From positions 1 through 64,000 of IMG/VR virus record IMGVR_UViG_3300050821_008688: a stretch of 64,000 nucleotides of DNA. One strand, given 5' to 3'. The position numbers and the translations under genes are program-made. Positions 23,152 to 45,459 of the stretch are shown one piece after another. The DNA comes from a virus. Position 1 is the stretch's first letter, and each line of letters begins with the position of its first letter. A model generated the notes under the pieces. That model had not been told where the DNA came from. It was given only the letters and a program-made list of their open reading frames with translations, and made no database searches.

Positions 23152-23165
23152 GGTACGAAAGTACT
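23152..23165. promoter_or_regulatory. GTAC-N4-GTAC box abutting the -35 (TTGACA) of a leftward promoter
   Basis: GGTACGAAAGTACT. Confidence 0.75.
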
Positions 23166-23499
23166 ACTGGCCGCAGTTGTCGGCTATGAAAAATAGGGGC
23201 TCAGGTTCGTTGGGCAGCGATGCGGCGTCGGCTTTATCATCTGGCGGGTTTTGATTTTCCTCGGGCGGCACAATAGCAGCTTCGTATATGTTGTTTGCAA
23301 GCATTACGGCTTCTTCCAACGATGTCGGAGTCAATCGGTTAACGAAACGCCGAGTCACCTGAAAAGCGGTGCCGTTAATCGTGGTACAGAGAATCGGTGC
23401 GGCTGCGTGCTCCGGGTCGTTAGTGTCACCTATGACGAAGATGAAGACCGGAAATCGGCTGGCGTCACCGTAGGTATTCCATTTCATCCAAGTGTTCAT
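23164..23499 (-). CDS. hypothetical protein
   Basis: ORF in a coupled leftward string. Confidence 0.55.
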   Translation of the reverse strand: MNTWMKWNTYGDASRFPVFIFVIGDTNDPEHAAAPILCTTINGTAFQVTRRFVNRLTPTSLEEAVMLANNIYEAAIVPPEENQNPPDDKADAASLPNEPEPLFFIADNCGQ

Positions 23500-23744
23500 T
23501 GCAGTGGTAGAACCGGCACTTCGTATGCGTTCCCTCGCTCTATTGCCATCTCTACAATTCGTGTAGCTTTTTGAAAAAGGGTAACGATGTCGCTGGCGTC
23601 ATTGCGCATTGTTCCGAGTCCGAGATGAGGTTCGGTGCAGTAGACCAGTCCGACCACGGCGCAGTTGTGCTTCGTCATGTCGCGAATAAATTGCGCCATC
23701 AGGTCGATTACTTCGTCGGGCAGCTTGTTGTCTTCAGCCATCAT
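23496..23744 (-). CDS. hypothetical protein
   Basis: SD GGAGG; coupled overlaps. Confidence 0.6.
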   Translation of the reverse strand: MMAEDNKLPDEVIDLMAQFIRDMTKHNCAVVGLVYCTEPHLGLGTMRNDASDIVTLFQKATRIVEMAIERGNAYEVPVLPLQ

Positions 23745-23959
23745 ATCCTCCGCGCGAGATACCGAATCAGAATGACCATCAAATAGATTAGAGCCGCGAC
23801 GGTGACCCACTGGCACGCCAGATGGATGTAGTCAACGATGTCAAATGTCCCGGACGCCATCGTCACCACGTCGCGTGAGAAGTACACCGTTAACAAAAAC
23901 AGCAGTCCGTTGAACGGTAAGAGGAACATCACTGCGAGTGCTGCGAAAATTGCTTTCAT
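23741..23959 (-). CDS. small 2-TM membrane protein
   Basis: Hydrophobic helices. Confidence 0.6.
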   Translation of the reverse strand: MKAIFAALAVMFLLPFNGLLFLLTVYFSRDVVTMASGTFDIVDYIHLACQWVTVAALIYLMVILIRYLARRI

Positions 23960-24122
23960 GCTCGTTTCTCCCCTTCGCGGATTAGGCGAACTTGTAGTCG
24001 ATGCCCTCGTTGGTCGGGTAGCGGGTCGTATATTCGCATCGCTTTAATTACAGCGCCGCCTTGAACCACCTCTGTATCGGGGTGGTATTTTTTCAAGCCG
24101 CGAATGAGTTGTGCGACAGTCA

Positions 24123-24308
24123 TTAGAATCCAAATTCCTCTCGGGTCTCTCCGGGCCACAGGTCTCCGGGTTGCGGGTCTTGCATGTAGCCTTCGCACTC
24201 GAAATCGCAGAGCGAGTTCGCCATTTCCAATGGTGCAGACCGACCGATTGGTTTTTTTCGCCGATGGCAAACAACGCAGTCTACTGCTTTTCCTACTTCT
24301 CTGGTCAT
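24123..24308 (-). CDS. small Cys-rich protein
   Basis: CVVC...C..EC; SD AGGAG. Confidence 0.55.
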   Translation of the reverse strand: MTREVGKAVDCVVCHRRKKPIGRSAPLEMANSLCDFECEGYMQDPQPGDLWPGETREEFGF

Positions 24309-24466
24309 AAGGCTCCTAGAAATTCTTTCATTACCATGCGTTGCCGCACTTCGTGCAGATGATATAGTCGAAGACGACGAGGCTGTGTTTGCCGCCCTTG
24401 GGGCATGGACCGCCTTGGTCATCCTTCGTCAAGCGTGCAACTTTTTTCTTAGGCTTCATGTGGCTC

Positions 24467-25519
24467 CTAGAAGTTGTCCCTTAAGTACTGGTTCAATTTA
24501 TCTAGCCTGTAGGTAGTATCTCGCAACTGCACGTTTAATGCAAGCGAATCCGCATTGAGTTGGTTGCGGAAGATGAGGGCCAGAGATGTGTCGGACCCAG
24601 AGATAGCCGTGGAGGTATCTGCGATTTTTTGGCGCTCAACTTTTAATCGGCGTAGTTCCTCGGACTGGACAGCGACTAGGTCGCTCACGATTTTGTGATA
24701 GACCTGAATGCTCTGCATTACGTCGCCGACCTGTGCTTGTTTCCAGTCGCCGTACGCTTCTTCAGATTTGTTGTAGTGTTGTGATGCCGTGTGGCTCCCG
24801 AGATTATACGTGACGGTGAAGCCCGCGTATGGGCTCCCAGTTGGCACTGCGAACGGCAGCAGCGGTTTCTCTACGCCAGCGGTTACTTGGAAATCCCAGT
24901 TGTTCAGCTTCAAAAGTTTATCTTGAGCCTTCTGGGTTTCAACGTTCGTCGCAAATTCTGCATCGGCCAGTTCGGTTAGAGACTCAGTAGAGAGTGGAGG
25001 CACGAAAATATTCGCAAGTGCCACTCGGGTGGTTTGACGTTCTGTTTCTAGCGCGAGTTTTTGTTTGCTGAGTAAATAGATGGACTGTTTTGGAATATTG
25101 TGAGCCTCCAAAATTTTTGTGTTTGCGGCGATTAACGTGTCATTCTCCGCAATCGCCGCGTTGATTAGGGTCAATTTATATCGTAATGCGTCTAATTCCA
25201 GAGCCTGCATATCAAATGTGATACGTTCTTGGACGGTGATGGAGTCTTTGTAGAGTTGGCACTGCTTTTTGCCAATGGCGATAGTCAGACTGCCTTCGCG
25301 GATGTGATTGACAGAGTCAGTGAGCCCCAAAAATAGTTGCGGCGGCGTGCCTTGGGCTGGCGTGACTCCCGCCGTGGCGACTGGCGCGCGAAGCGTAGCG
25401 CCTTGGGCTTGGGACGACTCTTCAATATAACGGCAGTACGCCGTGGTGTCTTGCGCGGATTGGCCCCAGATAGCCATTGACCACATAAGCCATGTAAAAA
25501 GAATCGCTAGGTATTTCAT
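24467..25519 (-). CDS. outer-membrane-factor (TolC-like) protein
   Basis: Signal peptide; two amphipathic beta-hairpins (VATAGVTP..LFLGLT; WDFQVTAGVE..YAGFTVTYNL), each followed by long helices, matching the TolC two-fold repeat. Confidence 0.55.
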   Translation of the reverse strand: MKYLAILFTWLMWSMAIWGQSAQDTTAYCRYIEESSQAQGATLRAPVATAGVTPAQGTPPQLFLGLTDSVNHIREGSLTIAIGKKQCQLYKDSITVQERITFDMQALELDALRYKLTLINAAIAENDTLIAANTKILEAHNIPKQSIYLLSKQKLALETERQTTRVALANIFVPPLSTESLTELADAEFATNVETQKAQDKLLKLNNWDFQVTAGVEKPLLPFAVPTGSPYAGFTVTYNLGSHTASQHYNKSEEAYGDWKQAQVGDVMQSIQVYHKIVSDLVAVQSEELRRLKVERQKIADTSTAISGSDTSLALIFRNQLNADSLALNVQLRDTTYRLDKLNQYLRDNF

Positions 25520-26238
25520 GATTTCTCCTGTTGGTCATCAACGTTGAGAATGAAATCTGCGACACGGCCATGCAGAAGTTTGGCGTTCGGTATTACGCAA
25601 TGCCCGCCAATCTTGCCGGGGAAATGTTCAAGGACCGGGCGAGCTACTGAAGACATGCCGAGTGCGGCATATCCGTCATTGTATGTGTAGTTTGATAGTT
25701 TGTAAACTACATCGAAATCCAGACCGTTTTCTTCGCAGTATCTGTGGACTTCTTTTTCAAATGCGATGCACATACCGTAGTATGTAGTGCTCCACAGTTT
25801 CAAGGCTTCGGTCGTGCTAGCCTTGGGAGTAGCGAATGTTTTGATGCCGATTGACAGAAAAATCTCAGCGGCTTCTTTGGCACGCGGGCCACCAAAAAAT
25901 TTTACGAACGTCGTTATACCCTTTGCGAGATTTGGGTGAACGCCGCGAATTGGAGAGTGAACTACGCGATTTGAAGCGATACGGCAGCATGTTCCCATTG
26001 GAACTGTTGAGTGAACGATGACCAGTCCCTCGTCAGTCAAATAATGCAGTAAATATGCCCGCACGTTTTCAATGAAATGTTCGGAGTATGGAATACAGAT
26101 GTGGATAACATCTGCTCTGATGTCTGTGGAACTGTCCATATCAATGCCAACTACTTTGAGGCCACGGTCTCGAAGAACGGAATAAACTGCGCTGCCCACT
26201 TGTCCGTTGCAACCAACGACTAGATGCTGTTGTAACAT
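25516..26238 (-). CDS. UDP-glucose/GDP-mannose dehydrogenase family protein (short form)
   Basis: Rossmann VVGCNGQVG, HSTVPMGT, EALKL and catalytic GGHCV; SD GGAGG. Confidence 0.88.
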   Translation of the reverse strand: MLQQHLVVGCNGQVGSAVYSVLRDRGLKVVGIDMDSSTDIRADVIHICIPYSEHFIENVRAYLLHYLTDEGLVIVHSTVPMGTCCRIASNRVVHSPIRGVHPNLAKGITTFVKFFGGPRAKEAAEIFLSIGIKTFATPKASTTEALKLWSTTYYGMCIAFEKEVHRYCEENGLDFDVVYKLSNYTYNDGYAALGMSSVARPVLEHFPGKIGGHCVIPNAKLLHGRVADFILNVDDQQEKS

Positions 26239-26251
26239 TTGAATCCTCCCT

Positions 26252-27277
26252 TTAGAATATCCACAACGGTCGTCCGAAAAATAAGACTTTGGCTTTGCCA
26301 TCTTCTGGATTGTAGAGCGAAATTTCTGCGAGTGTGCCGCGAACGTCATCTTTGAACAGCGGATTCGCTCCGTGAACCTCGGCGGGAAACAAACGAACGA
26401 TGCGGCCCGCTTTGGAGCAAGCTACTATTCCAATCTTGCAGGAGTACAACGGAGCGTTCGGTTGCACGGCGGTGCCGTATGGCACAAACAGAAAAGTTTT
26501 GGATGGCCCAGACAATACGGCATAGACGGGACTGTCCTGTGCTGTCTGAAGGGCGTTGTCTAGGGCGCGAATTTGGTCGGTCTCGGCTTTGAGTGTCGCA
26601 GAACTGGCGCAAATTGTAATGTTGAGTTGAGAGATTTCGTCCAGTAATTCGGCGCGTTTGGTCAAAGTTTCCAGCATTTTTGTATTCGTCGGGTTGTGTT
26701 CCACAATTTGGTCGCGCAATAAAATCTCAGTGATGCGGTTGTCAGTGAATCCGTTTCTGGCTTGAGTCAGTGCCAGCTTCGCAGTTTCCGCGTCGCTCTT
26801 AGTCATTAGTCCCGTGGTCATGTCTGTATCAATTTCGCTGCGCAATGCTGCAACACTTGAGTCATCCGTGGTGTCTATATCGGATTGTTTCTGTTGGTCA
26901 AGAGAGGCAAGCGCGCGACCGCTCTCTTTAATGGCTTGGTCTTCGCGTGCGATAGCCGGGTCAGTTTTGTCGGCGACGGTTTGAAGTGCTAGTCGGTGAA
27001 TTTTCATCTCAAGAATCAGGTTGGTGAGACGTGCGGTATCAATAGCGAGAGCGTCCCGCTGTGCGTTGGAAGTCAGTACTTTGCCCAGCATGTCGAGGCT
27101 GGCCGCGTCTGAGGCTGAGAGCGTGACTGGCGCGCCCCAAGAGGATGCGGTGAGATAGTAAATGATGACTGCGCCATACGAGACCATGCCTCCAAGAATG
27201 CCATAAAGAATTGAGAGGCCAACTAAGCGGTAGAGTGTTAGAACCAAACTTGTCGCGCTTAATCTAAACTGAATCAT
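26252..27277 (-). CDS. membrane-fusion / periplasmic adaptor-like protein
   Basis: One N-terminal TM, a long coiled-coil hairpin and a C-terminal beta domain. Confidence 0.55.
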   Translation of the reverse strand: MIQFRLSATSLVLTLYRLVGLSILYGILGGMVSYGAVIIYYLTASSWGAPVTLSASDAASLDMLGKVLTSNAQRDALAIDTARLTNLILEMKIHRLALQTVADKTDPAIAREDQAIKESGRALASLDQQKQSDIDTTDDSSVAALRSEIDTDMTTGLMTKSDAETAKLALTQARNGFTDNRITEILLRDQIVEHNPTNTKMLETLTKRAELLDEISQLNITICASSATLKAETDQIRALDNALQTAQDSPVYAVLSGPSKTFLFVPYGTAVQPNAPLYSCKIGIVACSKAGRIVRLFPAEVHGANPLFKDDVRGTLAEISLYNPEDGKAKVLFFGRPLWIF

Positions 27278-28484
27278 TTGATTTCCTCACTTTCGGTTTT
27301 AGAGTTCTGTTGCCCCAGTCGCCGGAGTCTAAAGTGAAAATAGCCAAAGGCGCGAGCAACAGCGAATTAACAATCCACCATGTAGAATATACCAGCAACT
27401 TCAGCGGATGTCTAACAGATTGTGACGGGGTGAACTTTCGCACCAAGCAAAATACTAGAAATCCGTATCCGAAGAAAATGAGCGCGCGGTTCGGGTCTAG
27501 CCACGCGCCGGGATATCCTGCAAACAGAAGCGCGATTTGCAGAATTGAAATGAATAGCACCAGCGGCGTTAGGATGTAGACATACAGCGATTTCACGCCC
27601 AGTTTGTGAATGTGCGTGTGGACGTGGCGAACTGAAAAGAAAAAATCCCGAATTGTGGTACGTCTCCAGCGTAGTTGTTGTCCCCAATATTTTGTGAAAG
27701 TGTTTGGGACGGCGGTATAGCAAACGGCTTTCTCGTCCATGTAGGTACCCCAGCCATTCAGAAGCAGGCAGTGTGTGATGAATCGGTCTTCGCCGTCTTT
27801 GACTTGAACGCCGAACCAATTTCGGCTTTCTAGTTCTGGCCGTAGTTGTTCAAAGGCTTCGCGTCGTAGAGCGAAAGCGTAGCCGCCGATTACGCCGACC
27901 ATTCGCATCGCATTCTCAGGTTGCTTGTAGAGTTGGAACCCGAGAAAATAAATGAAGACTTGAAACGCGGTCAGCGCGTTGTCATTTGGATTGCGAACAA
28001 TCGCGGGCGCACCGACACCACCCAAACGTTTGTCTCCCAGACACGCCATTAATTCACGAATGCACGTTGGTCCCAGTGTCGTGTCGGAGTCTACAATCAT
28101 GACTATTTCGGAATCCGAGTGCGCCAGCGCGTTCAGAATGGTTTGGGTTTTACCAAGGTTTGGATTGTTGTAGAAGGCGCGCACATTTGGAAAATCTACA
28201 GCGGCTTTTGCTAGCCACTCCGCTGTGTCGTCTCCGCTGCAATCGTCGGTCACAATCATATCAATCTTGCCGGGATAATCACTGTGGGAAATACTCTCCA
28301 CTGTAGAATAGACTGCGCGGCCTTCGTTGAAAGCAGGCAACAGAATGGAGAGGGAGGGAGTATAGGAATAATCCTTGATGACTCCAACGTTCGGATGGGA
28401 AATACGCATAATCGCGCCGACCAAGTAGCGAGCGATTCCTACAATTAGCGCGATGATGGTCATCATCACCAAAAAAATCGGCAT
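27264..28484 (-). CDS. processive GT2 polysaccharide synthase (NodC / hyaluronan / chitin synthase-like)
   Basis: PAFNE, DD, GK, DSDT, GEDR, QQLRW and C-terminal WGNR; N- and C-terminal TM helices. Confidence 0.92.
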   Translation of the reverse strand: MPIFLVMMTIIALIVGIARYLVGAIMRISHPNVGVIKDYSYTPSLSILLPAFNEGRAVYSTVESISHSDYPGKIDMIVTDDCSGDDTAEWLAKAAVDFPNVRAFYNNPNLGKTQTILNALAHSDSEIVMIVDSDTTLGPTCIRELMACLGDKRLGGVGAPAIVRNPNDNALTAFQVFIYFLGFQLYKQPENAMRMVGVIGGYAFALRREAFEQLRPELESRNWFGVQVKDGEDRFITHCLLLNGWGTYMDEKAVCYTAVPNTFTKYWGQQLRWRRTTIRDFFFSVRHVHTHIHKLGVKSLYVYILTPLVLFISILQIALLFAGYPGAWLDPNRALIFFGYGFLVFCLVRKFTPSQSVRHPLKLLVYSTWWIVNSLLLAPLAIFTLDSGDWGNRTLKPKVRKSNDSV

Positions 28485-28720
28485 TAGTGTCTCGCCCTTT
28501 CTAGCTGTTTATTTCCACGCGATGTAGGGTGGTTGTCTTCGTGGTCCCAACCGCTGAAGCAGGTGTCGCAAACTCCGCGTTCCCGTTCCTCAGAGCGAAA
28601 TAGCGGAGCCCCGCAGGGTCCAACCTCGGTGACCGTCATGCGGCTGGTCTCTTTGCCGGTGTACATATCAATAGTGCCGTAGTCAATTGTTTTGCTTCGC
28701 TCAACTATGCAGGTGCTCAT
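28484..28720 (-). CDS. small Cys-containing protein, first gene of the polysaccharide operon
   Basis: Its stop overlaps the GT2 start; promoter TTGACA-18-GAGAAT upstream. Confidence 0.6.
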   Translation of the reverse strand: MSTCIVERSKTIDYGTIDMYTGKETSRMTVTEVGPCGAPLFRSEERERGVCDTCFSGWDHEDNHPTSRGNKQLERARH

Positions 28721-28766
28721 GTCTCAATTCTCCCTGAAAGTGGGTATCGGTGTCAAGGGCAATTTA

Positions 28767-28783
28767 AGACTTTTTGTCCTATT
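28767..28783 (+). promoter_or_regulatory. putative late promoter motif, copy 7
   Basis: AGACT-TTTTG-TCCTATT. Confidence 0.65.
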
Positions 28784-28801
28784 GGTAGAGAGGAAAATCC
28801 C

Positions 28802-29077
28802 GTGGAAGAACGCCGCCAGCACGACCGTTCGGAAGAGATTTTGCAGGCTATTCGTGATACACGTAAAGATGTTAACGACCATCGTCAAGAGGCGACTCTG
28901 GCTATTGGTAATTTGCGTACAGAAGTTGCTACGTTTAGAAGCAATATTGAAGTCCGAGTGAAAGCGACGGAAGACTATCAAAAAACGGATGAAAAATGGG
29001 CGCGTATCCATCACCTGTTACTTCCGCTTTACGCGATTGGACACGGTATCGCGGCTCACTTTGGCATTAGGATTTAA
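28802..29077 (+). CDS. coiled-coil + C-terminal TM protein (XhlA/holin-like)
   Basis: ERR start, coiled coil, hydrophobic C-terminus; late motif upstream. Confidence 0.55.
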   Translation: MEERRQHDRSEEILQAIRDTRKDVNDHRQEATLAIGNLRTEVATFRSNIEVRVKATEDYQKTDEKWARIHHLLLPLYAIGHGIAAHFGIRI

Positions 29078-30359
29078 TTCCATAGAACGTTCGTGCGTAT
29101 AGTGGGGCTTTGGGTATCACTCGTACCGCAGTTGGGTCAGCCGTTACTGAGAACTTCCGCCCGCTTGGAAATTTCACTTCTACTATCACATTTGGATTTC
29201 CTGTCTTCATCACAGTGCCGCAGTATTTCGCCGCCTCGCCTGTTAAAATTTCCACGAAATCGCCAATCCGAACGCGCGCCGTTTTCTGCGCGGAGACAGA
29301 AGCCATCATTTTTAGTACATCTGCGTGTGGGACCGTTACCGCACTGACAAACTCCCCGGCGTCGTTGTAGGTTGCGGCCATCTCTGTGATGCCGCGTATG
29401 TGAGTCAGAGAGTTTAGTGCTGTCGGATTTATGCTGCGCGCTAGGATGTATCCGAATTCAAGTTCACCATTGGCGTCTGTCGGTGCGAAAATTTGCGCAG
29501 CGGTTTTGCTGAACATTTTTTGCCCGTAGCGTTGAAGCGTTGGCAGGATTGTGTTGATACGATGCTCGCTGCTAGTCTCAAACATATTCCACGAAGTATT
29601 GCGGAGCGCCGAGGTATCGCCGAACGAAAGCAGCGGCAGTTTATCAGACGGTGGTGCTTTGAAACGGCGAAGATGAACCCGCTGTAGTCGTGCTCGGCAA
29701 CTGCTACTGAGACCGCTGCGAGTCAGTGAGGCTTGGTGAGTCAGGCTGCGAAGATAGCAGCCGACCGCTAGAGCGCGAATGTCTTTTGATGCGAGCAGCT
29801 TTTTAATAGCGGGGCGGAATATTTTGCGAATCGCGGAGCGCGGAGCCTTCACAGTGTCTGCAACAAAAGCGTAACTCTGTTTCTGCGCGTACAAGAGAAT
29901 CAGGTCCGTCAAGCTGCCGTATTGCGTGTACTCTAAATTTGCCAGATACAAAATAGGACGTAGAATGCTGGCGTCTGGGTTTGTGCCGAGAACGATAAGC
30001 GCGCCGATTGCTTGCTCAATGAGGCGCAACTGTTGCCATACCCGCGTCTGAATCTCTCCGTGGGTTCTGGCAATAAAACTTTGGGATTTGCCCAGAAGGT
30101 AGTACGACAAAAACATTTCTTGCCACTCAACGCGGAGTTTTGCGAGGAGGGGGAAAAGTTTTTCGGGGTATTCTTGAGCGAACGCTCGGAAGTCAATCAG
30201 GCTGGTATTTTCGGGAATGGTTTCTGTAGAAATTAGCTCACCGTGTTTGTCTTTGCGATTGAACGCGGCTTCACTCGCTGCGTCTTCAATGCCCTCCCAG
30301 TAGGCCGGGTTGTTGTGTGGCGTATATGGTTCTAAATTGGTAGAATTATCAAAGGGCAT
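29067..30359 (-). CDS. transcription regulator: sigma70 region-4-like HTH(s) fused to NusG NGN-KOW
   Basis: LRVEWQEMFLSYYLLGKSQSFIARTHG (r4-like HTH); second HTH SYAFVADTV; FGYILAR..HIRGITE (NGN); RIGDFVEILTGEAAKYCGTV (KOW). Confidence 0.7.
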   Translation of the reverse strand: MPFDNSTNLEPYTPHNNPAYWEGIEDAASEAAFNRKDKHGELISTETIPENTSLIDFRAFAQEYPEKLFPLLAKLRVEWQEMFLSYYLLGKSQSFIARTHGEIQTRVWQQLRLIEQAIGALIVLGTNPDASILRPILYLANLEYTQYGSLTDLILLYAQKQSYAFVADTVKAPRSAIRKIFRPAIKKLLASKDIRALAVGCYLRSLTHQASLTRSGLSSSCRARLQRVHLRRFKAPPSDKLPLLSFGDTSALRNTSWNMFETSSEHRINTILPTLQRYGQKMFSKTAAQIFAPTDANGELEFGYILARSINPTALNSLTHIRGITEMAATYNDAGEFVSAVTVPHADVLKMMASVSAQKTARVRIGDFVEILTGEAAKYCGTVMKTGNPNVIVEVKFPSGRKFSVTADPTAVRVIPKAPLYARTFYGIKS

Positions 30360-30365
30360 ACCTGC

Positions 30366-30394
30366 ATAGTACTTTGGTACCAGCGGGATGTCAA
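30366..30394 (-). promoter_or_regulatory. leaderless sigma70 promoter overlapped by a GTAC-N4-GTAC box
   Basis: TTGACA-17-TACTAT-6-ATG; box at 30368-30381 covers the spacer and -10. Confidence 0.75.
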
Positions 30395-30579
30395 GAAGAT
30401 TTCGGGTCGTCGCTCAAACCGAGGAAATCTAGCCCAGCGGCTAGCGAGTCACGATAGGCTTTTAGGCATCGTTGGCCTGTCGCGGTCAAGTCGGATTCTT
30501 CGATGGAGCCGTCTGCGATTTCCAATTCCAGTTCCTGCCCTTCTTCAATGTCAGTGCCCGCGCGCATCCAGTTATCCAT
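30391..30579 (-). CDS. small acidic hypothetical protein
   Basis: SD GGAGG. Confidence 0.55.
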   Translation of the reverse strand: MDNWMRAGTDIEEGQELELEIADGSIEESDLTATGQRCLKAYRDSLAAGLDFLGLSDDPKSS

Positions 30580-30581
30580 GA

Positions 30582-31097
30582 TTACCTCCGATTAGCTGCG
30601 AACAAAACGTGCGCACCGTACCTGCCATCATCACCGGTTCCGTTGTACCTGTGGAGCCCTTCGCGTAATCCGCGCGGGCGAATATAATCTGCCAAAATTT
30701 TGGTGCCGATGCGGATGTTGGCTTCGGGATTTTCCAGTTCATGCCGGTTATGTCGCCACACTCGGGGATTAACCTGCATGAGCCCGATAGCGCCTTCCGT
30801 ACTTACGGCTAGCGGTCGGCAGGATGACTCTATCACAATTACGGCGGCGACGACGCGCGGCCAGATACCGTTATCCACGGCGGCGTGCCCAGCAGGCGAG
30901 GCGTAGGCGTCAGAGCAGCCGTTAGCTACCAGAACGCTTGCTGCCGCCTCTGTAGCTGCCCCGTATTCAATCTGTAGGGGTGCCAAAGCCGTTGTGTGGG
31001 CGGGTTCTGGCGTGGGTCCGGGCATATTTGCCACCTGTAGGACTAGCGCGAGGGTTGCGATGCTTACAACGACCGCGAGTGCTGTTAGGTATCTCAT
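30582..31097 (-). CDS. lytic transglycosylase (SLT domain) with N-terminal membrane anchor
   Basis: IESS, GAIGLMQV, NIRIG and YNG motifs. Confidence 0.9.
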   Translation of the reverse strand: MRYLTALAVVVSIATLALVLQVANMPGPTPEPAHTTALAPLQIEYGAATEAAASVLVANGCSDAYASPAGHAAVDNGIWPRVVAAVIVIESSCRPLAVSTEGAIGLMQVNPRVWRHNRHELENPEANIRIGTKILADYIRPRGLREGLHRYNGTGDDGRYGAHVLFAANRR

Positions 31098-31133
31098 GAC
31101 TTTAGTGTGCCTTCCGAGTCCGAAGGGGTCAAT

Positions 31134-31147
31134 AGTACCGAAGTACC
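31134..31147. promoter_or_regulatory. GTAC-N4-GTAC box abutting -35
   Basis: AGTACCGAAGTACC; leftward promoter TTGACC-17-CACACT. Confidence 0.75.
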
Positions 31148-37118: not shown

Positions 37119-37131
37119 TGTAAATTTTACA
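37119..37131. promoter_or_regulatory. TGTAA-N3-TTACA palindrome
   Basis: Same motif as the cluster at 45927-46588. Confidence 0.6.
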
Positions 37132-37819: not shown

Positions 37820-37874
37820 TGGTGTTGCCTCCTGTACTGTGATGATAGTATGCGGAGCCGCCGCCCCGGTCAAT

Positions 37875-37888
37875 AGTACTAAAGTACC
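37875..37888. promoter_or_regulatory. GTAC-N4-GTAC box abutting -35
   Basis: AGTACTAAAGTACC. Confidence 0.75.
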
Positions 37889-38039
37889 GACTTTCAGTCG
37901 GGATTTGCGTTGGTGATTTTGTCGAGTATAGCGACGCGCGCCTCCGCGCGGGTCTTTCCCGTTTGTATCATGACGCGAGTGACCCAGTCTTTTAGAGCCT
38001 TGCCTGCAACGTGTTCCCATCGAGTTTTCATGGTGTCTC

Positions 38040-38267
38040 CTAGACAATCGCTTTGACGTTCAGGTCTCCCGGTTCGTTGCGAAGCCCGAAAGCCTTCTCC
38101 AGTTCATACATCAGCGTATGAAACCCGCCAGTATCGCCACAGTTCGGGCATCCGCCGTGGTCATTGTTGTAGCCTGCATTGCTCAAGCCAGCGTCAAATA
38201 TTTTGCGTTGGACCTTGAACACCTCAGCTATCTTTCGTTTTTCTTTCAGACTGAATGAAGTTTTCAT
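38040..38267 (-). CDS. hypothetical protein (CPNC)
   Basis: SD GGAGG. Confidence 0.6.
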   Translation of the reverse strand: MKTSFSLKEKRKIAEVFKVQRKIFDAGLSNAGYNNDHGGCPNCGDTGGFHTLMYELEKAFGLRNEPGDLNVKAIV

Positions 38268-38469
38268 AGTGCCTCCATTATTTTTTCAGATTTAATTCTT
38301 CGAGCAGGTAGTCCGCTAGACTTATCCAGTTGTCGGAGAGGTACGAGCCGACTCCGCTGTATTCCGCATAGTCCGCTTTTGTGTTCGCCAACTCAGTGAC
38401 GAACGCGAGCAACTTTTGCGCCTGCTCTTGCGTTATGGGTTCGGCCATCGTATCCTCCTCGAAAATTTT

Positions 38470-38760
38470 GCGGGCTCTTTTTCGCTGATGAGCCTATGTA
38501 GAGTCGGCACCTTGCGGTGGGCAACTCCTCACATAGCCAGCGATGGAGCCCTTACGACGGCGCGTCTTACCCATTAGGCCGCGCGCCGAAGATTGGTGGC
38601 TTCTACGTTGCCCGGTGGAACAATCCACTGTGGAGTCTTGTGTTGCTGCGACCTTACCGGGTGAGAGCAGGATTTCCGTCCCGCGTCTCCACTCTTTTGA
38701 CCCGTCTTATTCGCATTCTCCATCGCGGGGCGATTCGTCGTAGTGATAGCGCCACCGATG
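38470..38760 (-). ncRNA. highly structured intergenic RNA with an AN...AA* short frame
   Basis: Multiple stems; stop codon inside a hairpin; long irregular hairpin capped by a GCAA tetraloop. Confidence 0.4.
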
Positions 38761-38958
38761 TTAAGAAACTTTTTTGATGAGCCCGTTTTCCATTGTGACT
38801 TCGGCGAACCAGTTGCGCTTGTATGGCGACGGCCCGACCACACAGAACTTGCCGTCTGTTTTGAATTCAGGGCCGAATGCGCTGGTTTCCTCGTAGCGCA
38901 ACGGCAGGCCGACCGCCGCTTTCAGGGCTTTCTTGGTCGCGTAATTGGCTCCCATCAT
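38761..38958 (-). CDS. phage hypothetical protein (YATKKALK)
   Basis: SD AGGAGG. Confidence 0.7.
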   Translation of the reverse strand: MMGANYATKKALKAAVGLPLRYEETSAFGPEFKTDGKFCVVGPSPYKRNWFAEVTMENGLIKKVS

Positions 38959-39079
38959 TGTCGTGTGCCTCCTGAGATATTGTGGCGGTCGCCGAGGGCA
39001 AGTAGCACTACATTGACTACCGCATCTTCTCTGGTTTCCGCCACAACCCATTATCACTTTTCCTGAGATTCCTGTCTAT

Positions 39080-39093
39080 AGTACTTTAGTACC
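39080..39093. promoter_or_regulatory. GTAC-N4-GTAC box between divergent promoters
   Basis: AGTACTTTAGTACC; leftward TAGACA..GATAAT, rightward TTGACA-16-TACACT. Confidence 0.75.
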
Positions 39094-39137
39094 GATTTTT
39101 TGCTTGACAAGGAAACTCACGGGTGTACACTCAGTTC

Positions 39138-40469
39138 ATGTCAACGTTTTCCATCTCAGGCACTATCTCTCCTGCGTCCTTTGTGAATCCTGCCACTACC
39201 ATCGTGACATGGAATATGGGTTTTCCTCACTGGGGGAATGTGTCGCCTGCGGCTGACGGTACATACACGATTCCTAATTTGGCTCCCGGAACCTATATCA
39301 TTCAGGTAACCGGTTCAAATTTTTTGTCTCCCGCACAAACAGTGATTGTGAGCAATGCCAACGTGACTGGAATAAATTTTGTTTGTACGGCTGCTCCGAA
39401 TATAGGAGTTTTCACGCCAATTTTTTCGGATTCTTTTCAGCGAGCGAATGAAACTCCACTTGGTAGCACAGTAGGACATCAGCAGTGGTCACCGCCGAAC
39501 GGCAGTCCGGGGCTTATTACTTCAACGTATCCTGAAATTTTGAACGACCAAGCGATAAGCGAACTTAATGGTACGCTTGACGGAACGGCGGTGTATCTGG
39601 ATGTTGCTCCATATCCTGTGCTGCCTGCGGACCAGTTCTGTCAGTGGACATTCAAAACTCTGAAAAACGGAAATGCGTGGATATATGTTCGCAGCACACT
39701 GCCCGGTACGGGGTCAGGCAACAACGCACTTGAAGTTAATTGGAGTTTTTTTGCGATAAACGGAGCCGGTGTTCGTGGATGGGGATTTGCACCGGAAGAC
39801 GACAATTCCGGTAATATTCCATACAACTTTGTTCCATTTCAGCCGTGGCCTGTTAGCGAAGGTGATACTTGGGCTGTTGGGATTGCGGGACAAGGCGTCA
39901 ACAGCGTTGCATATGTTTTTGTGAATGGCGTGTGTATATGGCAAGGGTCTCTAGCACCGAATCCAGATTTGAATAAGATGTTGCCGAATGGCACCGTTGG
40001 AATTCAAATAAATCCCTACTCTACTCCGCCATTGGCGAGCGATATAGGCATAATCAATTTTGTGTCTGGGGCTTTTTCTGTGACTTCTCCCTCAGTTCCG
40101 AGCGGGATTCGCGGTATTCTTTCGTTTAGCAAACGCACTACGACCGCCGTTACAGTTTTTGCGTGTCTGGGTGCAGCAACAAAAGCATTTCATCTCGCTA
40201 ACACCCCGAGCATAATGAATTCGCTGCATCTTGAACACGTGGAGCTATTCAGTTTGTATCGCCGAGTTTGTCACCAAGATAAAATGAATCAGGCTGCGGA
40301 TTTGGATGCCACTATCGCGAAAATCGTCACCGTGGTCGGGCAACTGAATGCGACGGTACAATTAATCACGCCGACGTTTCGGAATGCTGTAGAAGTACAA
40401 GAAGTTCAAATTGTGATTGCGAATGCAGCGCAGACTATGAATCTAGTTGTACTCGCGGAGACTCCATGA
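39138..40469 (+). CDS. Ig/carboxypeptidase-regulatory-like + lectin-like beta-sandwich protein
   Basis: DGTYTIPNLAPGTY, then an FSDSFQRANE domain and a helical C-terminus. Confidence 0.65.
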   Translation: MSTFSISGTISPASFVNPATTIVTWNMGFPHWGNVSPAADGTYTIPNLAPGTYIIQVTGSNFLSPAQTVIVSNANVTGINFVCTAAPNIGVFTPIFSDSFQRANETPLGSTVGHQQWSPPNGSPGLITSTYPEILNDQAISELNGTLDGTAVYLDVAPYPVLPADQFCQWTFKTLKNGNAWIYVRSTLPGTGSGNNALEVNWSFFAINGAGVRGWGFAPEDDNSGNIPYNFVPFQPWPVSEGDTWAVGIAGQGVNSVAYVFVNGVCIWQGSLAPNPDLNKMLPNGTVGIQINPYSTPPLASDIGIINFVSGAFSVTSPSVPSGIRGILSFSKRTTTAVTVFACLGAATKAFHLANTPSIMNSLHLEHVELFSLYRRVCHQDKMNQAADLDATIAKIVTVVGQLNATVQLITPTFRNAVEVQEVQIVIANAAQTMNLVVLAETP

Positions 40470-40720
40470 AAATTATAAGGAAAGAAGCAGGTGATGAGCA
40501 CACGGTGCCTTACGAGGTATTTTGCGAGGAGCACAACACGCAATTTCCTTTCAAAATTAGTTTCTTCGCACTATCTGCGGCTCCTAGTCCAAGAGCATTG
40601 ATTGAGGAGATTGCAAGTCAGGTGTTGCGGAGTTGTTGTTCTGGATGTAGAGGATTGGACGCGCCGTTGCCACCGACACGCTGGCCGAACGCGGGGGAAC
40701 CGGGAGGAGCCGAACTGTGA
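40466..40720 (+). CDS. hypothetical protein
   Basis: Coupled ORF. Confidence 0.55.
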   Translation: MKIIRKEAGDEHTVPYEVFCEEHNTQFPFKISFFALSAAPSPRALIEEIASQVLRSCCSGCRGLDAPLPPTRWPNAGEPGGAEL

Positions 40721-41040
40721 AAGACCCACTGATTGATAATTATCGGATGCAGGCTGCGAGACACTATGTTGAAGATTGTTTAGTTTTTATAGACGGTTCT
40801 ATTGAAGCGGGCATAAGGCGTATTGGTACGGATGGATTTGAAAAAATAGTACGGGATGTTTATAAAGCAATGCCGGGGAGAGCAAATGAGCATAGCAAGA
40901 TTTGCATCCAAGATTGAAGCCACGAAAGCCCACTGGTTTTCTCGCAGACACGAAACCGGTGGCCCAAACTCTGACGCGCGCGAAAAGTACAAAGCAGAAC
41001 AGCAAGCAAAGCGCGACCGCGCCACAGGTCCGAGGGTCTA

Positions 41041-41307
41041 ATGTTCAAACGAAAAGAACCAATCAAACTCGACATAAGCCTCGGTCAGTTTCCACACTGC
41101 GACCAGCGTATTCTTCACGCGCCTAGAGAATGCCAGTACTGCGATAAACATCAGGATTGGCAAGCGCTGCGCGTTGCATGGGGCATCGCTTTTACTGACT
41201 ACGAGCCTGAAGGAACTGAGCTACCGTGCCCTGCCGATTATGCGCGCAGTGACAAACACAAATTGTGGGGCGGTAATATAGCTAAACCAGCGGAGCCCAA
41301 ATCATGA
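41041..41307 (+). CDS. phage hypothetical protein (FPHCDQRILHAP..C.YCD)
   Basis: ORF with Zn ligands. Confidence 0.65.
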   Translation: MFKRKEPIKLDISLGQFPHCDQRILHAPRECQYCDKHQDWQALRVAWGIAFTDYEPEGTELPCPADYARSDKHKLWGGNIAKPAEPKS

Positions 41308-41467
41308 AATACATTTACAAGGTTGAGTGCGATGGTGACTCGCTGTACATTCTCGCGGAGAGCCAAGAGTCGGCGAGACAGCGCCTGCACGCAATCTGTG
41401 GCCGGGTGCCTGAGTATTTGGTGAAATGGACTATTGTTACGGCGCTGCCGAAAGGCGAGGAGTTTCT

Positions 41468-41734
41468 ATGAAATATGTTTCGCAGTCAGGCACCGTTGTG
41501 GAAGCGCACAAGATTAAAGCATTCGGGAACGACGCGATTGGACCCTACGTGGTTTTTGAAAACGGAGAGCATCATTCGCGTCCCCTTGTGCATGGATTCA
41601 TTCCAAGCGTTGGCGACTACTTTGTGCAAGATGCGCCACACACTGTGGACACAGTTCCGGCTTATGTTGAAGCGGGTGCCACGGCCATCATTGCGGCTGC
41701 AATTTTCAATAAGCTGTATACACCACAGGAATAG
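41468..41734 (+). CDS. phage protein with VEAxxI...GDY.V...F...Y fold
   Basis: SD GAGGAG; motif pattern. Confidence 0.6.
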   Translation: MKYVSQSGTVVEAHKIKAFGNDAIGPYVVFENGEHHSRPLVHGFIPSVGDYFVQDAPHTVDTVPAYVEAGATAIIAAAIFNKLYTPQE

Positions 41735-41744
41735 GAGGATTCAA

Positions 41745-42047
41745 ATGGACTTGAAAGATTTTCGTACGGCAATAATTACGAGTACTGAACAGCTAAGCTT
41801 GTTGCAGGCGGTGAACGAGGGCTATGAATTTTTGGCGGAACACATTTTCGCTGAGGTAGCTCCGAGCCCCCAGCGTACGATTGCGCTGCATCGGCTGCTT
41901 GAATCAAAAATGAACTTGGTCCACGGTATTACGCATCCGCCGCAGTACCTTGCACCTGTGGATGTGTTGAAACCGCGCCGAGATGCGAATTACGAATTCG
42001 GAGAATTAAGAAAGTCAGCGGAGTACTCTAAGAATGAGAGTCGGTGA
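41745..42047 (+). CDS. Acb2/Tad1-like helical hairpin protein (candidate immune-signal sponge)
   Basis: FLAEHIFAEVAPSPQRTIALHRLLESKMNLVHGIT resembles the SRExSLAxTxLEExxMW hairpin. Confidence 0.55.
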   Translation: MDLKDFRTAIITSTEQLSLLQAVNEGYEFLAEHIFAEVAPSPQRTIALHRLLESKMNLVHGITHPPQYLAPVDVLKPRRDANYEFGELRKSAEYSKNESR

Positions 42048-42219
42048 TGCGCCGCCTCTGTGTGTTCTACTACAAGGCGGCAGAGTGGCAAGGTAAGCCT
42101 GTTCAGTGGATTGTATGTACAAAATGCCGTGCGAAGATTCGCCACTGTCAGTTGACCAGTTTGTTGAAAGATGCAGCGCGACGCGCACAGTTCGCGGACA
42201 GCCAATATGGGAGTGAAAA

Positions 42220-42411
42220 ATGATAATTGATGACTACACGTTTTCGTATCTGATTAAGCGGGTTCTGGGCTCTGGTGTGTCAGTGAACGAATTAGCAGAA
42301 ACGCTGGGTGTGAGCGGATACACCGTGCAGTGGTGGGCAGGTGGGAGAAGTTTACCGCACCCAGCGATGCGCCAAGGGATTCGAGAAGCAATCGATTCAA
42401 TATACGGATAG
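42220..42411 (+). CDS. XRE/Cro-like HTH protein
   Basis: SVNELAETLGVSGYTVQWWAGGRSLP. Confidence 0.85.
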   Translation: MIIDDYTFSYLIKRVLGSGVSVNELAETLGVSGYTVQWWAGGRSLPHPAMRQGIREAIDSIYG

Positions 42412-42420
42412 GGAGAAATC

Positions 42421-42630
42421 ATGAGCAGACAATCAGTACGAGAAGAGAAGCATGAAATGCGTGTGATGCGAGTACTCAGCAAAGCGGTGCATGCGATGCA
42501 AAAGCTGACTGCACACGCACGCGTGGTTGACACGTTTCCAAACACGACCAAAGAAGCGTGTATTGAACTGATGAATGTAGAAGCCCGTACGCGAATCCGA
42601 TTTGCCATGAAAGATTCAGAGGCGGTCTAA
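42421..42630 (+). CDS. hypothetical protein
   Basis: SD GGGAG. Confidence 0.55.
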   Translation: MSRQSVREEKHEMRVMRVLSKAVHAMQKLTAHARVVDTFPNTTKEACIELMNVEARTRIRFAMKDSEAV

Positions 42631-42745
42631 ACATATCAGGACTACGTCCTGCTGCTTCATTGCAGGCTAGCGATGATGCTCAACGGCGCGCGGATGGGTT
42701 CCAGCACCTCCTTTCCTGTCCGCGCGACGAGCGAGGCGAAAAAGT

Positions 42746-44091: not shown

Positions 44092-44095
44092 GATG

Positions 44096-44305
44096 TTAGT
44101 CCACCTCTTGGGCTTCGTACGCGCCGGGGAGAATCTGAATCGCTGCGAGCCCGTTCGCAACGCGTATCGGGTTTGCCCAAGCTACGCAGTCGGCGCAGAT
44201 GGGCTTGCGAAAGCCGTTGACCGTGACGCTAGGCACTAAATTAGGATTGAACGAAAACAGTTTGTGGCATCGCATGCACTCGCCTGTAGCCAGCATGAAT
44301 CCCAT
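44096..44305 (-). CDS. Zn-ribbon hypothetical protein
   Basis: CMRC...CADC. Confidence 0.65.
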   Translation of the reverse strand: MGFMLATGECMRCHKLFSFNPNLVPSVTVNGFRKPICADCVAWANPIRVANGLAAIQILPGAYEAQEVD

Positions 44306-44630
44306 TTTATAATCCTTCCATCACAATTCGCGAAGCATAGCGGTAGACCTTCAGTTCTAGCGCCGCTGCGTATTTTTCAACCAGTCGTCTCGCGGCCTCG
44401 GCTGCCTTGTAGTCTTCCTCTCCAGCACAATAGTGAAACAATTCAATGTGGTCTAGTAGGATTTGCATCAGCGTGCCTCCACGGTCTGAGTGTGTTTCTG
44501 GTTCTTGAAATACGTAAGCCACTTCGGAGTGGCGTGCAGCCGTGCTTCTTCTCGCTTCCATTTCAAAGTAGCGGCGCGGTCAAAGCCTGAGATGCTGGAA
44601 CCGCAGGTGCATCGGGCTTCGTAGCGCATG

Positions 44631-45080
44631 TTAGCTCACATCCGCAGGCAACAGGTTAGCGTCGGCAGGAACCAGGAATACATCGTAGGTCTTGTGCTTG
44701 GTTTCCACGATGAACACCAGTTCGTTGCTCGGTAGGCGATAGACGGTATGCGTCGGGCTGTAGGCATACGGCGAAGTAATCGCCGCGACGCGTGGGATTG
44801 CGTAGTTTGTGTCAGCCAACGTCGCGAGAAAGCGCGCGTGACCGACGTGTGAGGTAATGCGCTTGATGCGCTTCGGCATGGGTTCGCGGCCAATGAGTTG
44901 AAAGCGGATATCGGCATCGCGATAACCGGGGCGTTCACGATTCACTTTCACTGCCTGTTCAGCGAAGGCTTGCGCCTCTTCGTATGTGCCGAACCATGAA
45001 GAGTGATGTTCGCGAATGCCGCCGAGCAGCCAGCCGTTGTTATGCAGCAGAGTGATAACCGCTTTGTATTGGGTTGTCAT
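44631..45080 (-). CDS. hypothetical protein (FGTYEEA motif)
   Basis: SD GGAG. Confidence 0.65.
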   Translation of the reverse strand: MTTQYKAVITLLHNNGWLLGGIREHHSSWFGTYEEAQAFAEQAVKVNRERPGYRDADIRFQLIGREPMPKRIKRITSHVGHARFLATLADTNYAIPRVAAITSPYAYSPTHTVYRLPSNELVFIVETKHKTYDVFLVPADANLLPADVS

Positions 45081-45131
45081 TATCGTGTTCTCCATGTCAA
45101 GAGTATAGCGATTATCACATTTCAGTGCAAT

Positions 45132-45145
45132 GGTACTTTAGTACT
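45132..45145. promoter_or_regulatory. GTAC-N4-GTAC box abutting -35
   Basis: GGTACTTTAGTACT; leftward promoter TTGCAC..TATACT. Confidence 0.75.
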
Positions 45146-45445
45146 GTTTTTTAGTCGCTTCGCAGATGGGATATCGCAGGTGGCAGTTAGGATTGGCGTT
45201 GCGATTTTCGTGTCTGGGTACGCGACCTGTTTTCGTGAGCCGCACTCGCACTCCGCAGCGCGGGCAGTGAACAGTCATGACTTCCCCCGTGGCTTTTGGC
45301 CGACGCGGATGTGTTGCTGAGTGTCGCGCAGTTGTGTGCCGCGCCAGCCCGCGAGACCGCGATAGACCGTCGTGCCTTGAATCTTAGTGGTGATGAATAC
45401 TGGCTTCATGTAGACAGGATACCAATCATCACATTTCAGGTCAAT

Positions 45446-45459
45446 AGTACTTTGGTACC
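45446..45459. promoter_or_regulatory. GTAC-N4-GTAC box abutting -35
   Basis: AGTACTTTGGTACC; leftward TTGACC-17-TATCCT-6-ATG. Confidence 0.75.

Follow-up and report, generated by a model that had tools for sequence, protein, structure and literature searches.

The effect of a symmetric operator on a promoter is well described in phage lambda, where CI at OR activates PRM from OR2, near −42, and represses PR, and in the class II sites of CRP, FNR and LuxR, which are centred at −41.5 to −42.5. Host LexA directly governs Bacillus phage GIL01 (with gp7), CTXphi and coliphage 186 (tum). Lambda Q uses a binding element that lies between the −35 and −10 of PR′, and UpxY, LoaP and RfaH are operon-specific paralogues of NusG. 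Slow-growing soil bacteria, Chloroflexota among them, have phages that have received almost no study, the timing of their gene expression included. Here we describe a GTAC-N4-GTAC box that is tied to host-type promoters of a soil phage of about 100 kb (genome of 99.7 kb; G000), of which positions 1–64,000 form the window analysed, and compare it with these systems.

Box and promoter units in the phage genome

The window contains 12 exact GTAC-N4-GTAC boxes, compared with a mean of 0.45 and a maximum of 3 in 100 dinucleotide-preserving shuffles. The complete genome contains 14, alongside four copies with a gap of 3 bp, one with 5 bp and two with 6 bp. Two 4-base arms around a 4-base gap are also the half-site design of LexA-type palindromes. 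The ten boxes of the preliminary description are genuine, each starting 1 bp later than given there, and two further boxes that it had not listed lie within ORFs, away from promoter context (Table 1). The distance between box and hexamer is 2 bp in ten cases, 11 bp in one and 12 bp in one.

Nine boxes in the window share one layout on the minus strand, GTAC-N4-GTAC-(T/C)A followed by the −35 hexamer (class A). All nine also have, 17–18 bp past the −35, a −10-like hexamer whose second base is A and whose sixth is T. The position-weight scores of these sites are 27–35 bits; the best score in 20 shuffles is 18.1. If the spacer is taken as 17 bp and transcription as starting 7 nt past the −10, the box is centred at about −43.5, within the class II zone (−41.5 to −43.5). 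The class II geometry proposed earlier for the nine sites is thus borne out (2-bp gap, 9/9); the activation proposed with it is suggested by position only, and the −35 hexamers are good, with perfect TTGACA in 1/9, TTGACC in three, and at least five of six positions matched in 8/9. Good −35 hexamers are unusual among activator-dependent promoters. Judging from ORF layout, class A units are 0.25–2.2 kb long; a single half-site variant is present at 84777. On the far side of boxes 33059 and 39081, a divergent plus-strand TTGACA lies 12 and 11 bp away, respectively. A promoter scan of 22800–42700 finds 5/7 class A promoters and the promoter at 30394–30366, missing those at 31132 and 23150. Generic promoter-like matches in this region number 25 versus 17.8 ± 4.5, with no overall enrichment, so that what stands out as significant is the constant spacing of box and hexamer.

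The second register (class B) has the layout TTGACA-N8-box-TAT. At 30369, the box occupies the spacer and the beginning of the −10 (TTGACA-tcccgctg-GTACCAAAGTAC-TAT), its final TAC opens the −10, and the ATG of a 430-aa gene follows 6 nt downstream of the −10. The repressor geometry assigned to this site is confirmed, as the box overlaps spacer and −10. The site is not the lone exception it was taken for: beyond the window the layout recurs at 76359(+), 84823(+) and, in degenerate form, 75692(+), all upstream of replication or recombination genes, and it is found again in a sister phage (G005). The ORF layout gives class B units lengths of 7.2, 7.9 and 12.3 kb. The −35 is a perfect TTGACA in 4/4 class B promoters here and in 3/3 of G005 (7/7 together).

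Table 1. Box-bearing promoters and associated features in window coordinates
Feature	Position	Strand	Elements and remarks
Box without promoter context	7967–7978		inside ORF 7401–8870; possibly chance
ORF behind 23153 box	23097–22894	−	67 aa, membrane-like
Class A unit	23122–23164	−	box 23153–23164; 2-bp gap; −35 TTGACA 23150–23145; −10 TACCCT 23127–23122
430-aa protein gene, class B promoter	29067–30359	−	disordered N terminus, two HTH modules, then NGN and KOW
Class B unit	30366–30394	−	−35 TTGACA 30394–30389; 8 bp; box 30380–30369; −10 TACTAT 30371–30366
SLT-domain gene behind 31135 box	ATG 31097	−	ATG 6 nt past −10
Class A unit	31104–31146	−	box 31135–31146; −35 TTGACC; −10 CACACT
Class A unit	32600–32642	−	box 32631–32642; −35 TTGACT; −10 TATCCT
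Class A unit	33027–33070	−	box 33059–33070; −35 TTGACG; 18-bp spacer; −10 TATCAT
Genes behind 37082 box		−	84-aa ORF and 228-aa tyrosine-recombinase-like gene
Class A unit	37051–37093	−	box 37082–37093; −35 TGGACA; −10 GATAAT
DUF2958 gene behind 37876 box	37819–37481	−
Class A unit	37845–37887	−	box 37876–37887; −35 TTGACC; −10 TACTAT
Gene behind 39081 box		−	67 aa, phrog_37117
Class A unit	39050–39092	−	box 39081–39092; −35 TAGACA; −10 GATAAT
63-aa ORF, earlier "XRE" candidate	42220–42411	+	sub-threshold HTH match; not conserved with boxes
Class A unit	45102–45144	−	box 45133–45144; −35 TTGCAC; −10 TATACT; then 154-aa ORF
Class A unit	45416–45458	−	box 45447–45458; −35 TTGACC; −10 TATCCT; ATG 6 nt past −10
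Box without promoter context	47090–47101		inside ORF; possibly chance

The unit in other phages and in bacterial chromosomes

The box is present in four further phage records (3 copies in G004, 8 in G001, 5 in G002 and 8 in G005; reversed-pattern controls 0, 0, 1 and 2), and five more IMG/VR records carry 12, 6, 1, 2 and 4 copies of box plus YAT, with controls at 0. G005 keeps both registers. Its class B sites are at 18916, 32291 and 57462, and the orthologues of the NusG-like and Erf/SSB operons are among the operons that they head. Class B is seen only in G000 and G005, both of which encode the 430-aa HTH/NusG-like protein; a phage factor would be compatible with this restriction as well. 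Class A −35 hexamers are perfect in 0/6 cases in G005 and 0/3 in G004. G001 and G002 have no tblastn match at 1e-4; what phmmer finds is limited to weak matches with primase-like and glycosyltransferase proteins. Of the eight class A promoters of G001, five match the consensus TTGACA-17-TATAAT in full and another combines TTGACA with TTAATA. G002 has two boxes 33 bp apart. At G001 26759, one box lies between two divergent −35 hexamers, 2 bp from each, and in G071, G072 and G075 box plus YAT can be read on both strands with a 3-bp offset; the box is symmetric in use.

The unit also occurs in bacterial chromosomes. Among the matches listed (80 of 97 loci), 56 are from Chloroflexota, 43 of them with an Anaerolineae or subgroup label, and 8 from Acidobacteriota; cyanobacterial genomes are absent from these 80. 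In Anaerolineae chromosomes, at 23 loci or more, the unit precedes the same conserved small RNA, which ends in a terminator, with lgt, a CT398-like gene or other host genes next to it. A response-regulator/STAND gene pair neighbours the small-RNA locus. Exactly one unit per genome was found in 5/5 host genomes (controls 0). In hosts, the class A box is found at further genes too, and one box covers the start site of a gene for an ECF sigma factor; one host unit (L126) carries four GTACs at an 8-bp period. Upstream of 16S genes the box was found in 0/29 cases, and in one host genome (G010) the other GTAC-N4-GTAC sites are mostly in coding DNA. In an even sample of 301 Chloroflexota genomes, 6 contain the exact 19-mer unit (control 0), where chance would give roughly 2; the host signal therefore stems from a subset of this phylum. 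The phage probably infects a bacterium of the class Anaerolineae (Chloroflexota); the phage GroEL, at 26–47% identity to Chloroflexota copies (full-length about 30–43%), is uninformative on this point.

In five unit-bearing Anaerolineae genomes, which are candidate hosts (the phage's own host being a deduction), the box upstream of lexA is GAAC-N4-GTTC in 5/5 and the GTAC box in 0/5, and the GTAC box is therefore not their LexA box. In 4/5 of these genomes, the GAAC box lies between TTGACA and TATAAT. Of the earlier suggestion that a host factor may read the boxes, which resemble the cyanobacterial LexA box, the host factor stands as a good idea and LexA is unlikely.

Proteins that may read the box

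We tentatively favour a reading in which the boxes are operators of one symmetric, most likely host-encoded protein other than LexA that blocks class B promoters and probably helps class A promoters. As the word-plus-promoter unit is shared by unrelated phages and Chloroflexota chromosomes, a host protein probably controls phage early genes through the box. The phage promoters are of host type (sigma-A/sigma-70-like) and carry the box in two fixed registers. In class A, centred near −43.5 and serving the nine short leftward units of the window as well as the half-site variant at 84777, the bound protein would abut sigma region 4 in a class II-like manner and would more likely help than hinder RNA polymerase. 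In class B, centred near −15.5, the box fills the spacer and its last three bases open the −10; a protein bound here would have to exclude RNA polymerase and would therefore repress. This register would serve the operon at 30.4 kb, with the sigma-4-like/NusG-like gene first, and two long operons for replication and recombination that run rightward from 76.3 and 84.8 kb. With the host factor active, the small leftward genes would be favoured and replication and the NusG-like factor held off; with the factor inactive, the long operons would fire. A perfect −35 in class B and a mostly imperfect one in class A, as seen in G000, G005 and G004, would be expected if the factor restrains class B and assists class A.

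Were this so, several unrelated phage lineages would have adopted the operator of one host regulator as a standard promoter part, the two fixed registers should act oppositely, and host physiology would choose between quiet persistence and replication, with no phage repressor needed. The 12–16-bp box, the small-RNA promoter and the response-regulator/STAND pair offer a handle on an Anaerolineae regulator and its small-RNA target, and the box signature may help in assigning hosts to uncultivated phages.

The same host factor could instead repress in both registers, which we consider possible although distinctly less probable. Beside a strong −35, it would over-stabilise or block RNA polymerase, silencing all units that depend on the host polymerase together, and host state would thereby gate dormancy. 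Indeed, class A core elements are near consensus, and those of G001, mostly TTGACA with a consensus or near-consensus −10, would therefore need no activator. The position of the factor at class B and at the host ECF sigma start site clearly suits repression, and extra upstream GTAC half or full sites (L126, G002) fit as well. The phi29 protein p4, which through the same contact represses a promoter with a strong −35 and activates a weak one, also counts for repression in both registers. However, simple repression does not call for a box position that is constant to the base pair in four phage lineages and in the host, and the class A −35 is systematically less perfect than that of class B in G000 and G005.

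The 430-aa protein is a further, unlikely candidate, at least for class B. The preliminary description called its gene a sigma/NusG fusion, and structure comparison recognises a NusG-like half and, with lower scores, helices that resemble sigma region 4. The AlphaFold2 model (mean pLDDT 81.5) has an NGN and then a KOW domain of NusG/RfaH/Spt5 type; Foldseek matches it to NusG, RfaH and Spt5 at E 2.5e-5 to 1e-3 (probability 1.0), and residues 253–415 give VIA Z scores of 8–9 to the same proteins. Two HTH modules precede this half and resemble sigma region 4 and LuxR: residues 62–125 align with at least 15 sigma region 4 chains (Z 5.3–6.5; rmsd 1.0–3.4 Å over 57–67 residues) and residues 139–208 with LuxR-type HTHs (Z 5.4–5.9), both below the advised trust level of 8. 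The protein would use these modules for autoregulation and, much as Q does at its binding element, for delivering its NusG-like half to RNA polymerase at long-operon promoters. These structural alignments, the class B box on its own promoter in both G000 and G005, the confinement of class B to these two phages, the length of class B units compared with class A units and a weak Pfam match to Phage_antitermQ (E 0.067) argue for such a role. Against it, class A is present where the protein is absent, namely in G004 (97% complete), G001, G002 and host chromosomes; among the phage records, the family profile matches G005 alone. The HTH scores are under the trust level, and Pfam gives no sigma (Sigma70_r4), NusG or KOW model at E ≤ 5. 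An equally doubtful extension is that the box is a docking site in duplex DNA and the 430-aa protein a NusG-family antiterminator that is recruited to promoters in the manner of lambda Q, instead of through a single-stranded ops signal, and mimics the specificity of a host regulator; one DNA word would then serve host and phage proteins at the same promoters.

More unlikely still, each phage lineage may have its own small, fast-evolving box-binding protein, for instance a ribbon-helix-helix or short HTH protein undetectable by sequence search, with a host relative binding the small-RNA promoter. The small ORFs behind class A promoters are mostly without a family match, and the 8-bp GTAC period of some host units recalls ribbon-helix-helix operators, MetJ boxes being tandem operators of this kind. 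Nevertheless, no small protein is common to the lineages by phmmer at E ≤ 0.05 in a small database, and a phage-made activator of early genes would be absent when early promoters first fire. The 63-aa ORF proposed earlier as an XRE-type phage candidate does not hold up: HTH_31 matches at 19.2 bits against a cut-off of 27 (E 0.0016), eleven other HTH families match more weakly, and the ORF, found in G000 alone, has no tblastn homologue at E ≤ 0.01 in the box-bearing G001–G005. LexA_DNA_bind and Trans_reg_C domains were absent at E ≤ 1 from five phage records; class A is present in phage records that have no common candidate regulator, and no phage candidate tracks the boxes across the records searched.

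That host LexA binds the boxes and wires the phage to the SOS response is very improbable: the box has the 4-4-4 palindrome design of Gram-positive LexA boxes, fits the published cyanobacterial LexA motif RGTACNNNDGTWCB, and with TAGTAC-N4-GTACTA differs by one base per half-site from the lexA operators TAGAAC-N4-GTTCG (4/5 genomes), but lexA itself is preceded by a GTAC box in none of the five unit-bearing Anaerolineae genomes, G001 holds 14 GAAC boxes (TAGAAC-N4-GTTCTA in its arrays) and 8 GTAC boxes in separate contexts, and the listed chromosomal matches lack cyanobacteria.

Relation to known regulatory systems

The host-encoded factor that we favour would resemble lambda CI and the CRP, FNR and LuxR class II systems in having a symmetric site beside or over the −35 at a fixed register, in the same zone for class A, and a site over core elements at other promoters. 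It would differ in being probably host-encoded and in that the box spares the −35, which stays near consensus; contact and activation are putative here. As with lambda Q, class B puts a putative protein site in the spacer of long-operon promoters and, as with UpxY, LoaP and RfaH, a NusG-like gene is the first of one class B operon, with a polysaccharide-synthesis cluster downstream. RfaH-type factors recognise single-stranded ops DNA, whereas the box is a duplex palindrome, to which the 430-aa protein would bind only hypothetically. There is also a likeness in logic to the phages governed by host LexA, in which the operator of a host regulator, a 4-4-4 palindrome, lies inside phage promoters and host state decides phage development. 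In the candidate hosts studied here, lexA carries GAAC-N4-GTTC rather than GTAC, and the phage has 13–14 sites in two fixed registers, compared with one or two operators in those phages.

Two registers of the GTAC box

The window contains 12 copies of the palindrome GTAC-N4-GTAC (the box), and the whole genome 14. For the window count, 100 shuffles gave 0.45 copies on average and never more than 3. The GTAC tetranucleotide alone is not enriched (349 versus ~386 expected), and alternative spacings are scarce (four with N3, one with N5, and two with N6). Ten of these sites had been listed in the preliminary description; all exist, but each coordinate was 1 bp too low. Nine had been placed 2 bp upstream of a leftward −35 hexamer, and this is what we find: on the minus strand they read GTAC-N4-GTAC-(T/C)A followed by a TTGAC-like hexamer, with a −10-like hexamer 17–18 bp further on (register A, or class A). 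Box-to-hexamer gaps are exactly 2 bp in ten cases and otherwise only 11 bp and 12 bp, once each. A weight matrix of the nine class A sites gives them scores of 27–35 bits, compared with at most 18.1 in 20 shuffled genomes. A promoter scan recovers five of the seven class A promoters between 22.8 and 42.7 kb, and since generic promoter-like matches in this region are not enriched (25 versus 17.8 ± 4.5), the evidence lies in the fixed coupling of box and hexamer and not in promoter counts. If the spacer is 17 bp and transcription starts 7 nt past the −10, the register A box is calculated to cover −49 to −38, with its center at −43.5. Class A units are 0.25–2.2 kb long by ORF layout.

In register B (class B), the box lies within the promoter, as TTGACA-N8-box-TAT. 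At 30369, the box takes up the spacer, with its last TAC forming the start of the −10 hexamer TACTAT. This site is not the lone exception it had been taken for: the same layout recurs at 76359(+) and 84823(+), and at 75692(+) with one degenerate half-site, all outside the window and ahead of replication and recombination genes. Judged likewise from the ORF layout, the three main class B units span 7.2, 7.9, and 12.3 kb. Perfect −35 hexamers are found in 7/7 class B promoters versus 1/9, 0/6, and 0/3 in class A. Start codons lie 6 nt past the −10 at window positions 30359, 31097, 45409, and 1383, which suggests that the mRNAs starting there are leaderless; other units in the phage instead have a strong GGAGG ribosome-binding site.

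Positions of individual elements (window coordinates unless marked as genome)
Element	Position	Strand	Sequence or context
Class B site	30369		TTGACA-8 bp-GTACCAAAGTAC-TAT
Box not listed previously	7967		in coding DNA, without promoter context
Box not listed previously	47090		in coding DNA, without promoter context
Half-site variant	84777 (genome)	minus	AAAC-N4-GTAC-TA-TTGACT, −10 TACCCT
Second palindrome	37119		TGTAA(A/T)TTTTACA
Second palindrome	45927		TGTAA(A/T)TTTTACA
Second palindrome	45945		TGTAA(A/T)TTTTACA
Second palindrome	46010		TGTAA(A/T)TTTTACA
Second palindrome	46523		TGTAA(A/T)TTTTACA
Second palindrome	46576		TGTAA(A/T)TTTTACA
Second palindrome	76455 (genome)		TGTAA(A/T)TTTTACA
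Candidate late motif	11713		TTAAGACTTTT-N4-CTAT, exact
Candidate late motif	17629		exact
Candidate late motif	62852		exact
Candidate late motif	28764		exact; minus-strand gene region
Candidate late motif	1863		1–2 mismatches
Candidate late motif	7368		1–2 mismatches
Candidate late motif	54351		1–2 mismatches
Candidate late motif	58467		1–2 mismatches

The unit in other phages and in host chromosomes

The genome is 99,668 bp long, in one record with direct terminal repeats, and its first 64 kb make up the window. Family scans identify a phage (terminase, major head protein, tail fibres, GroEL-like chaperonin, DNA polymerase, primase, helicase, UvsX-like recombinase, and endolysin), the matched genes lying almost all on the plus strand. 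The ~23–47 kb region is a mosaic of small genes, mostly without annotation and many on the minus strand. Megablast with a 12-kb query found no close cultured relatives, and the DNA polymerase reaches no more than 34% identity with those of cultured phages. GroEL was uninformative as a host marker (26–47% identity to Chloroflexota copies, ~30–43% over full-length matches). Short contigs in one soil metatranscriptome are identical to stretches within 28.8–42.6 kb; strand and transcript starts are not readable from them, and they may represent DNA carry-over. A (TA)n run of ~22 bp lies beyond the window, in the replication-gene region (genome 94618–94640).

Both registers are fixed and conserved, and register A is common to unrelated phages and host chromosomes. 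An IMG/VR scan for the box followed by TATTGAC returned 95 stretches, about the chance expectation by our estimate, several contigs having two to five matches each. In five further IMG/VR records, the box followed by YAT occurs 12, 6, 1, 2, and 4 times, and the reversed control 0 times. One phage, G005 (96.7 kb), proves to be genuinely related (identities of 88% for the head protein, 62% for the terminase, and 55% for the 430-aa protein encoded behind the 30369 promoter) and holds eight boxes. It has a class B promoter at 18916, for the orthologous Erf/SSB operon, and another with one mismatch at 57487, before the operon holding the 430-aa orthologue. The distant relative G004 (98.5 kb) carries class A units only, three in all. 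Two proteins nevertheless stay close to their G004 counterparts, a 67-aa phrog_37117 protein (38761–38964, minus; 81% identity) and a DUF2958 protein (37481–37819, minus; 65%), and this pair sits behind class A promoters in both phages. The 2-bp rule also holds for eight boxes in G001, five in G003, and five in G002 (GC content 61% in G001 and G003, 44% in G002), phage records with no tblastn match to our phage at 1e-4 and, by phmmer, weak primase-like and glycosyltransferase similarities alone. Most of the promoters in G001 pair TTGACA with a −10 at or near consensus, and one G001 box is flanked by two divergent −35 hexamers.

On the host side, scanning 185,579 species genomes for the box followed by TATTGAC plus a −10 yielded 97 loci; among the 80 listed, 56 are from Chloroflexota (43 labelled Anaerolineae or a subgroup), 8 from Acidobacteriota, and 16 are scattered. 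At least 23 listed loci lie upstream of one conserved, terminator-ended small RNA of ~100 nt, which contains CCCUCCUUUC, an anti-Shine-Dalgarno-like sequence. The small RNA has no Rfam family; searching 20 loci against Rfam gave matches in 3 only, all c-di-GMP-II riboswitches downstream of Chloroflexia loci. It neighbors lgt and a gene for a CT398-like zinc-ribbon protein, both ordinary host genes, and divergent genes upstream of it often encode a response regulator of the OmpR type, a STAND/NACHT NTPase, or both. Exactly one full unit is present in each of five host genomes, and the box followed by YAT occurs 2–6 times in each, counting both strands; some of these sites are in register A ahead of unrelated genes, and one overlies the start region of an ECF sigma gene. 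With so few sites, standing ahead of unrelated genes, and with the other boxes of one host genome (G010) mostly in coding DNA, we reject a large host regulon. Among 301 Chloroflexota genomes drawn evenly, only 6 hold the exact 19-mer, so the host signal is confined to a subset of this phylum. Literature searches for promoters of Chloroflexota phages and for small RNAs of Anaerolineae found nothing.

Candidate readers of the box

We propose that one symmetric protein binds the box, and that it is most likely host-encoded. At register B, the bound protein would have to shut out RNA polymerase. At register A, three features point to a contact between the protein and RNA polymerase: spacing exact to the base pair, single boxes used on both sides, and −35 hexamers that are less perfect. 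We take this contact to assist transcription, at about even odds against the protein repressing at register A as well; the near-consensus promoters of G001 argue against assistance.

The boxes may instead be read by the phage's own 430-aa protein, because class B occurs only where the gene for this protein is present. A profile of the 430-aa family, however, matches G005 only, and not G004 (97% complete), G001, G002, or one host genome; as far as our searches of these sequences reach, the box-promoter unit is tied to no phage protein. LexA-type and OmpR-type DNA-binding domains are absent from five phage records at E ≤ 1.

The preliminary description had noted a resemblance to the cyanobacterial LexA motif and raised host LexA as a possible reader. 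The motif is in print, and in the portions of the literature available to us the box strings lead to cyanobacterial LexA papers only, yet the 80 listed host matches include no cyanobacterium. Moreover, 5/5 host lexA genes have GAAC-N4-GTTC upstream and none has GTAC, the operator lying between TTGACA and TATAAT in four of the five. The two palindromes are one base apart per half-site, and by these operators the GTAC box is not the LexA box of the five hosts. LexA-like paralogues fare no better: the weaker matches are HrcA, with CIRCE elements upstream, and a 91/138-aa LexA-DBD-like protein is found in only two of the five genomes. G001 carries TAGAAC-N4-GTTCTA 14 times, with 12 copies gathered in two arrays (991–1096 and 32439–32778) apart from its GTAC promoters; these boxes belong to the host lexA operator type and may be LexA decoys or iterons. 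An UP-element-like or general strong-promoter element is rejected, since 0/29 stretches of 1.5 kb ahead of Chloroflexota 16S genes contain a box.

Other phage elements and the 430-aa protein

The suggested XRE regulator does not bear out as a candidate reader: it is a plus-strand 63-aa ORF (42220–42411) with a sub-threshold HTH match, found only in this phage. The longest ORF there (42234–42608, minus; 124 aa) has an implausible Cys/Ser/Arg-rich sequence and low-recognition protein atlas matches only, and the 63-aa HTH ORF is more likely the real gene. It might serve, rather than the GTAC boxes, the second palindrome family, TGTAAATTTTACA, whose members often precede TAGT. Within a divergent, gene-poor hub (45.8–46.45 kb), three of them are repeated in tandem every 16 bp; the family is not found in G001, G002, G004, or G005. 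The array may comprise operators of a phage-specific regulator, or an origin. We regard TTAAGACTTTT-N4-CTAT, which lies immediately upstream of plus-strand structural genes, as a candidate motif of late promoters; G005 does not conserve it as such, and the word with up to two mismatches shows no overall enrichment (22 versus 16.5 expected).

The 430-aa protein (29067–30359, minus) has >120 metagenomic homologues. Its sole match among cultured phages is a weak one to one jumbo Acidobacteria phage, and a peptide-pattern scan of IMG/VR gave none. It had been called a sigma/NusG fusion. The NusG-like half stands: in a confident structure model (pLDDT 81.5), residues 253–415 are predicted to form an NGN-KOW pair of the NusG/RfaH/Spt5 type. 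For the sigma half, the modelled residues 62–125 and 139–208 resemble sigma region 4 and LuxR-type helix-turn-helix folds, at modest Z scores. Pfam detects none of the NusG, KOW, or sigma/HTH parts. The gene heads a 7-kb leftward unit with glycosyltransferase and UDP-sugar dehydrogenase-like genes further on, an arrangement with sugar genes that recalls operon-specific NusG paralogues.
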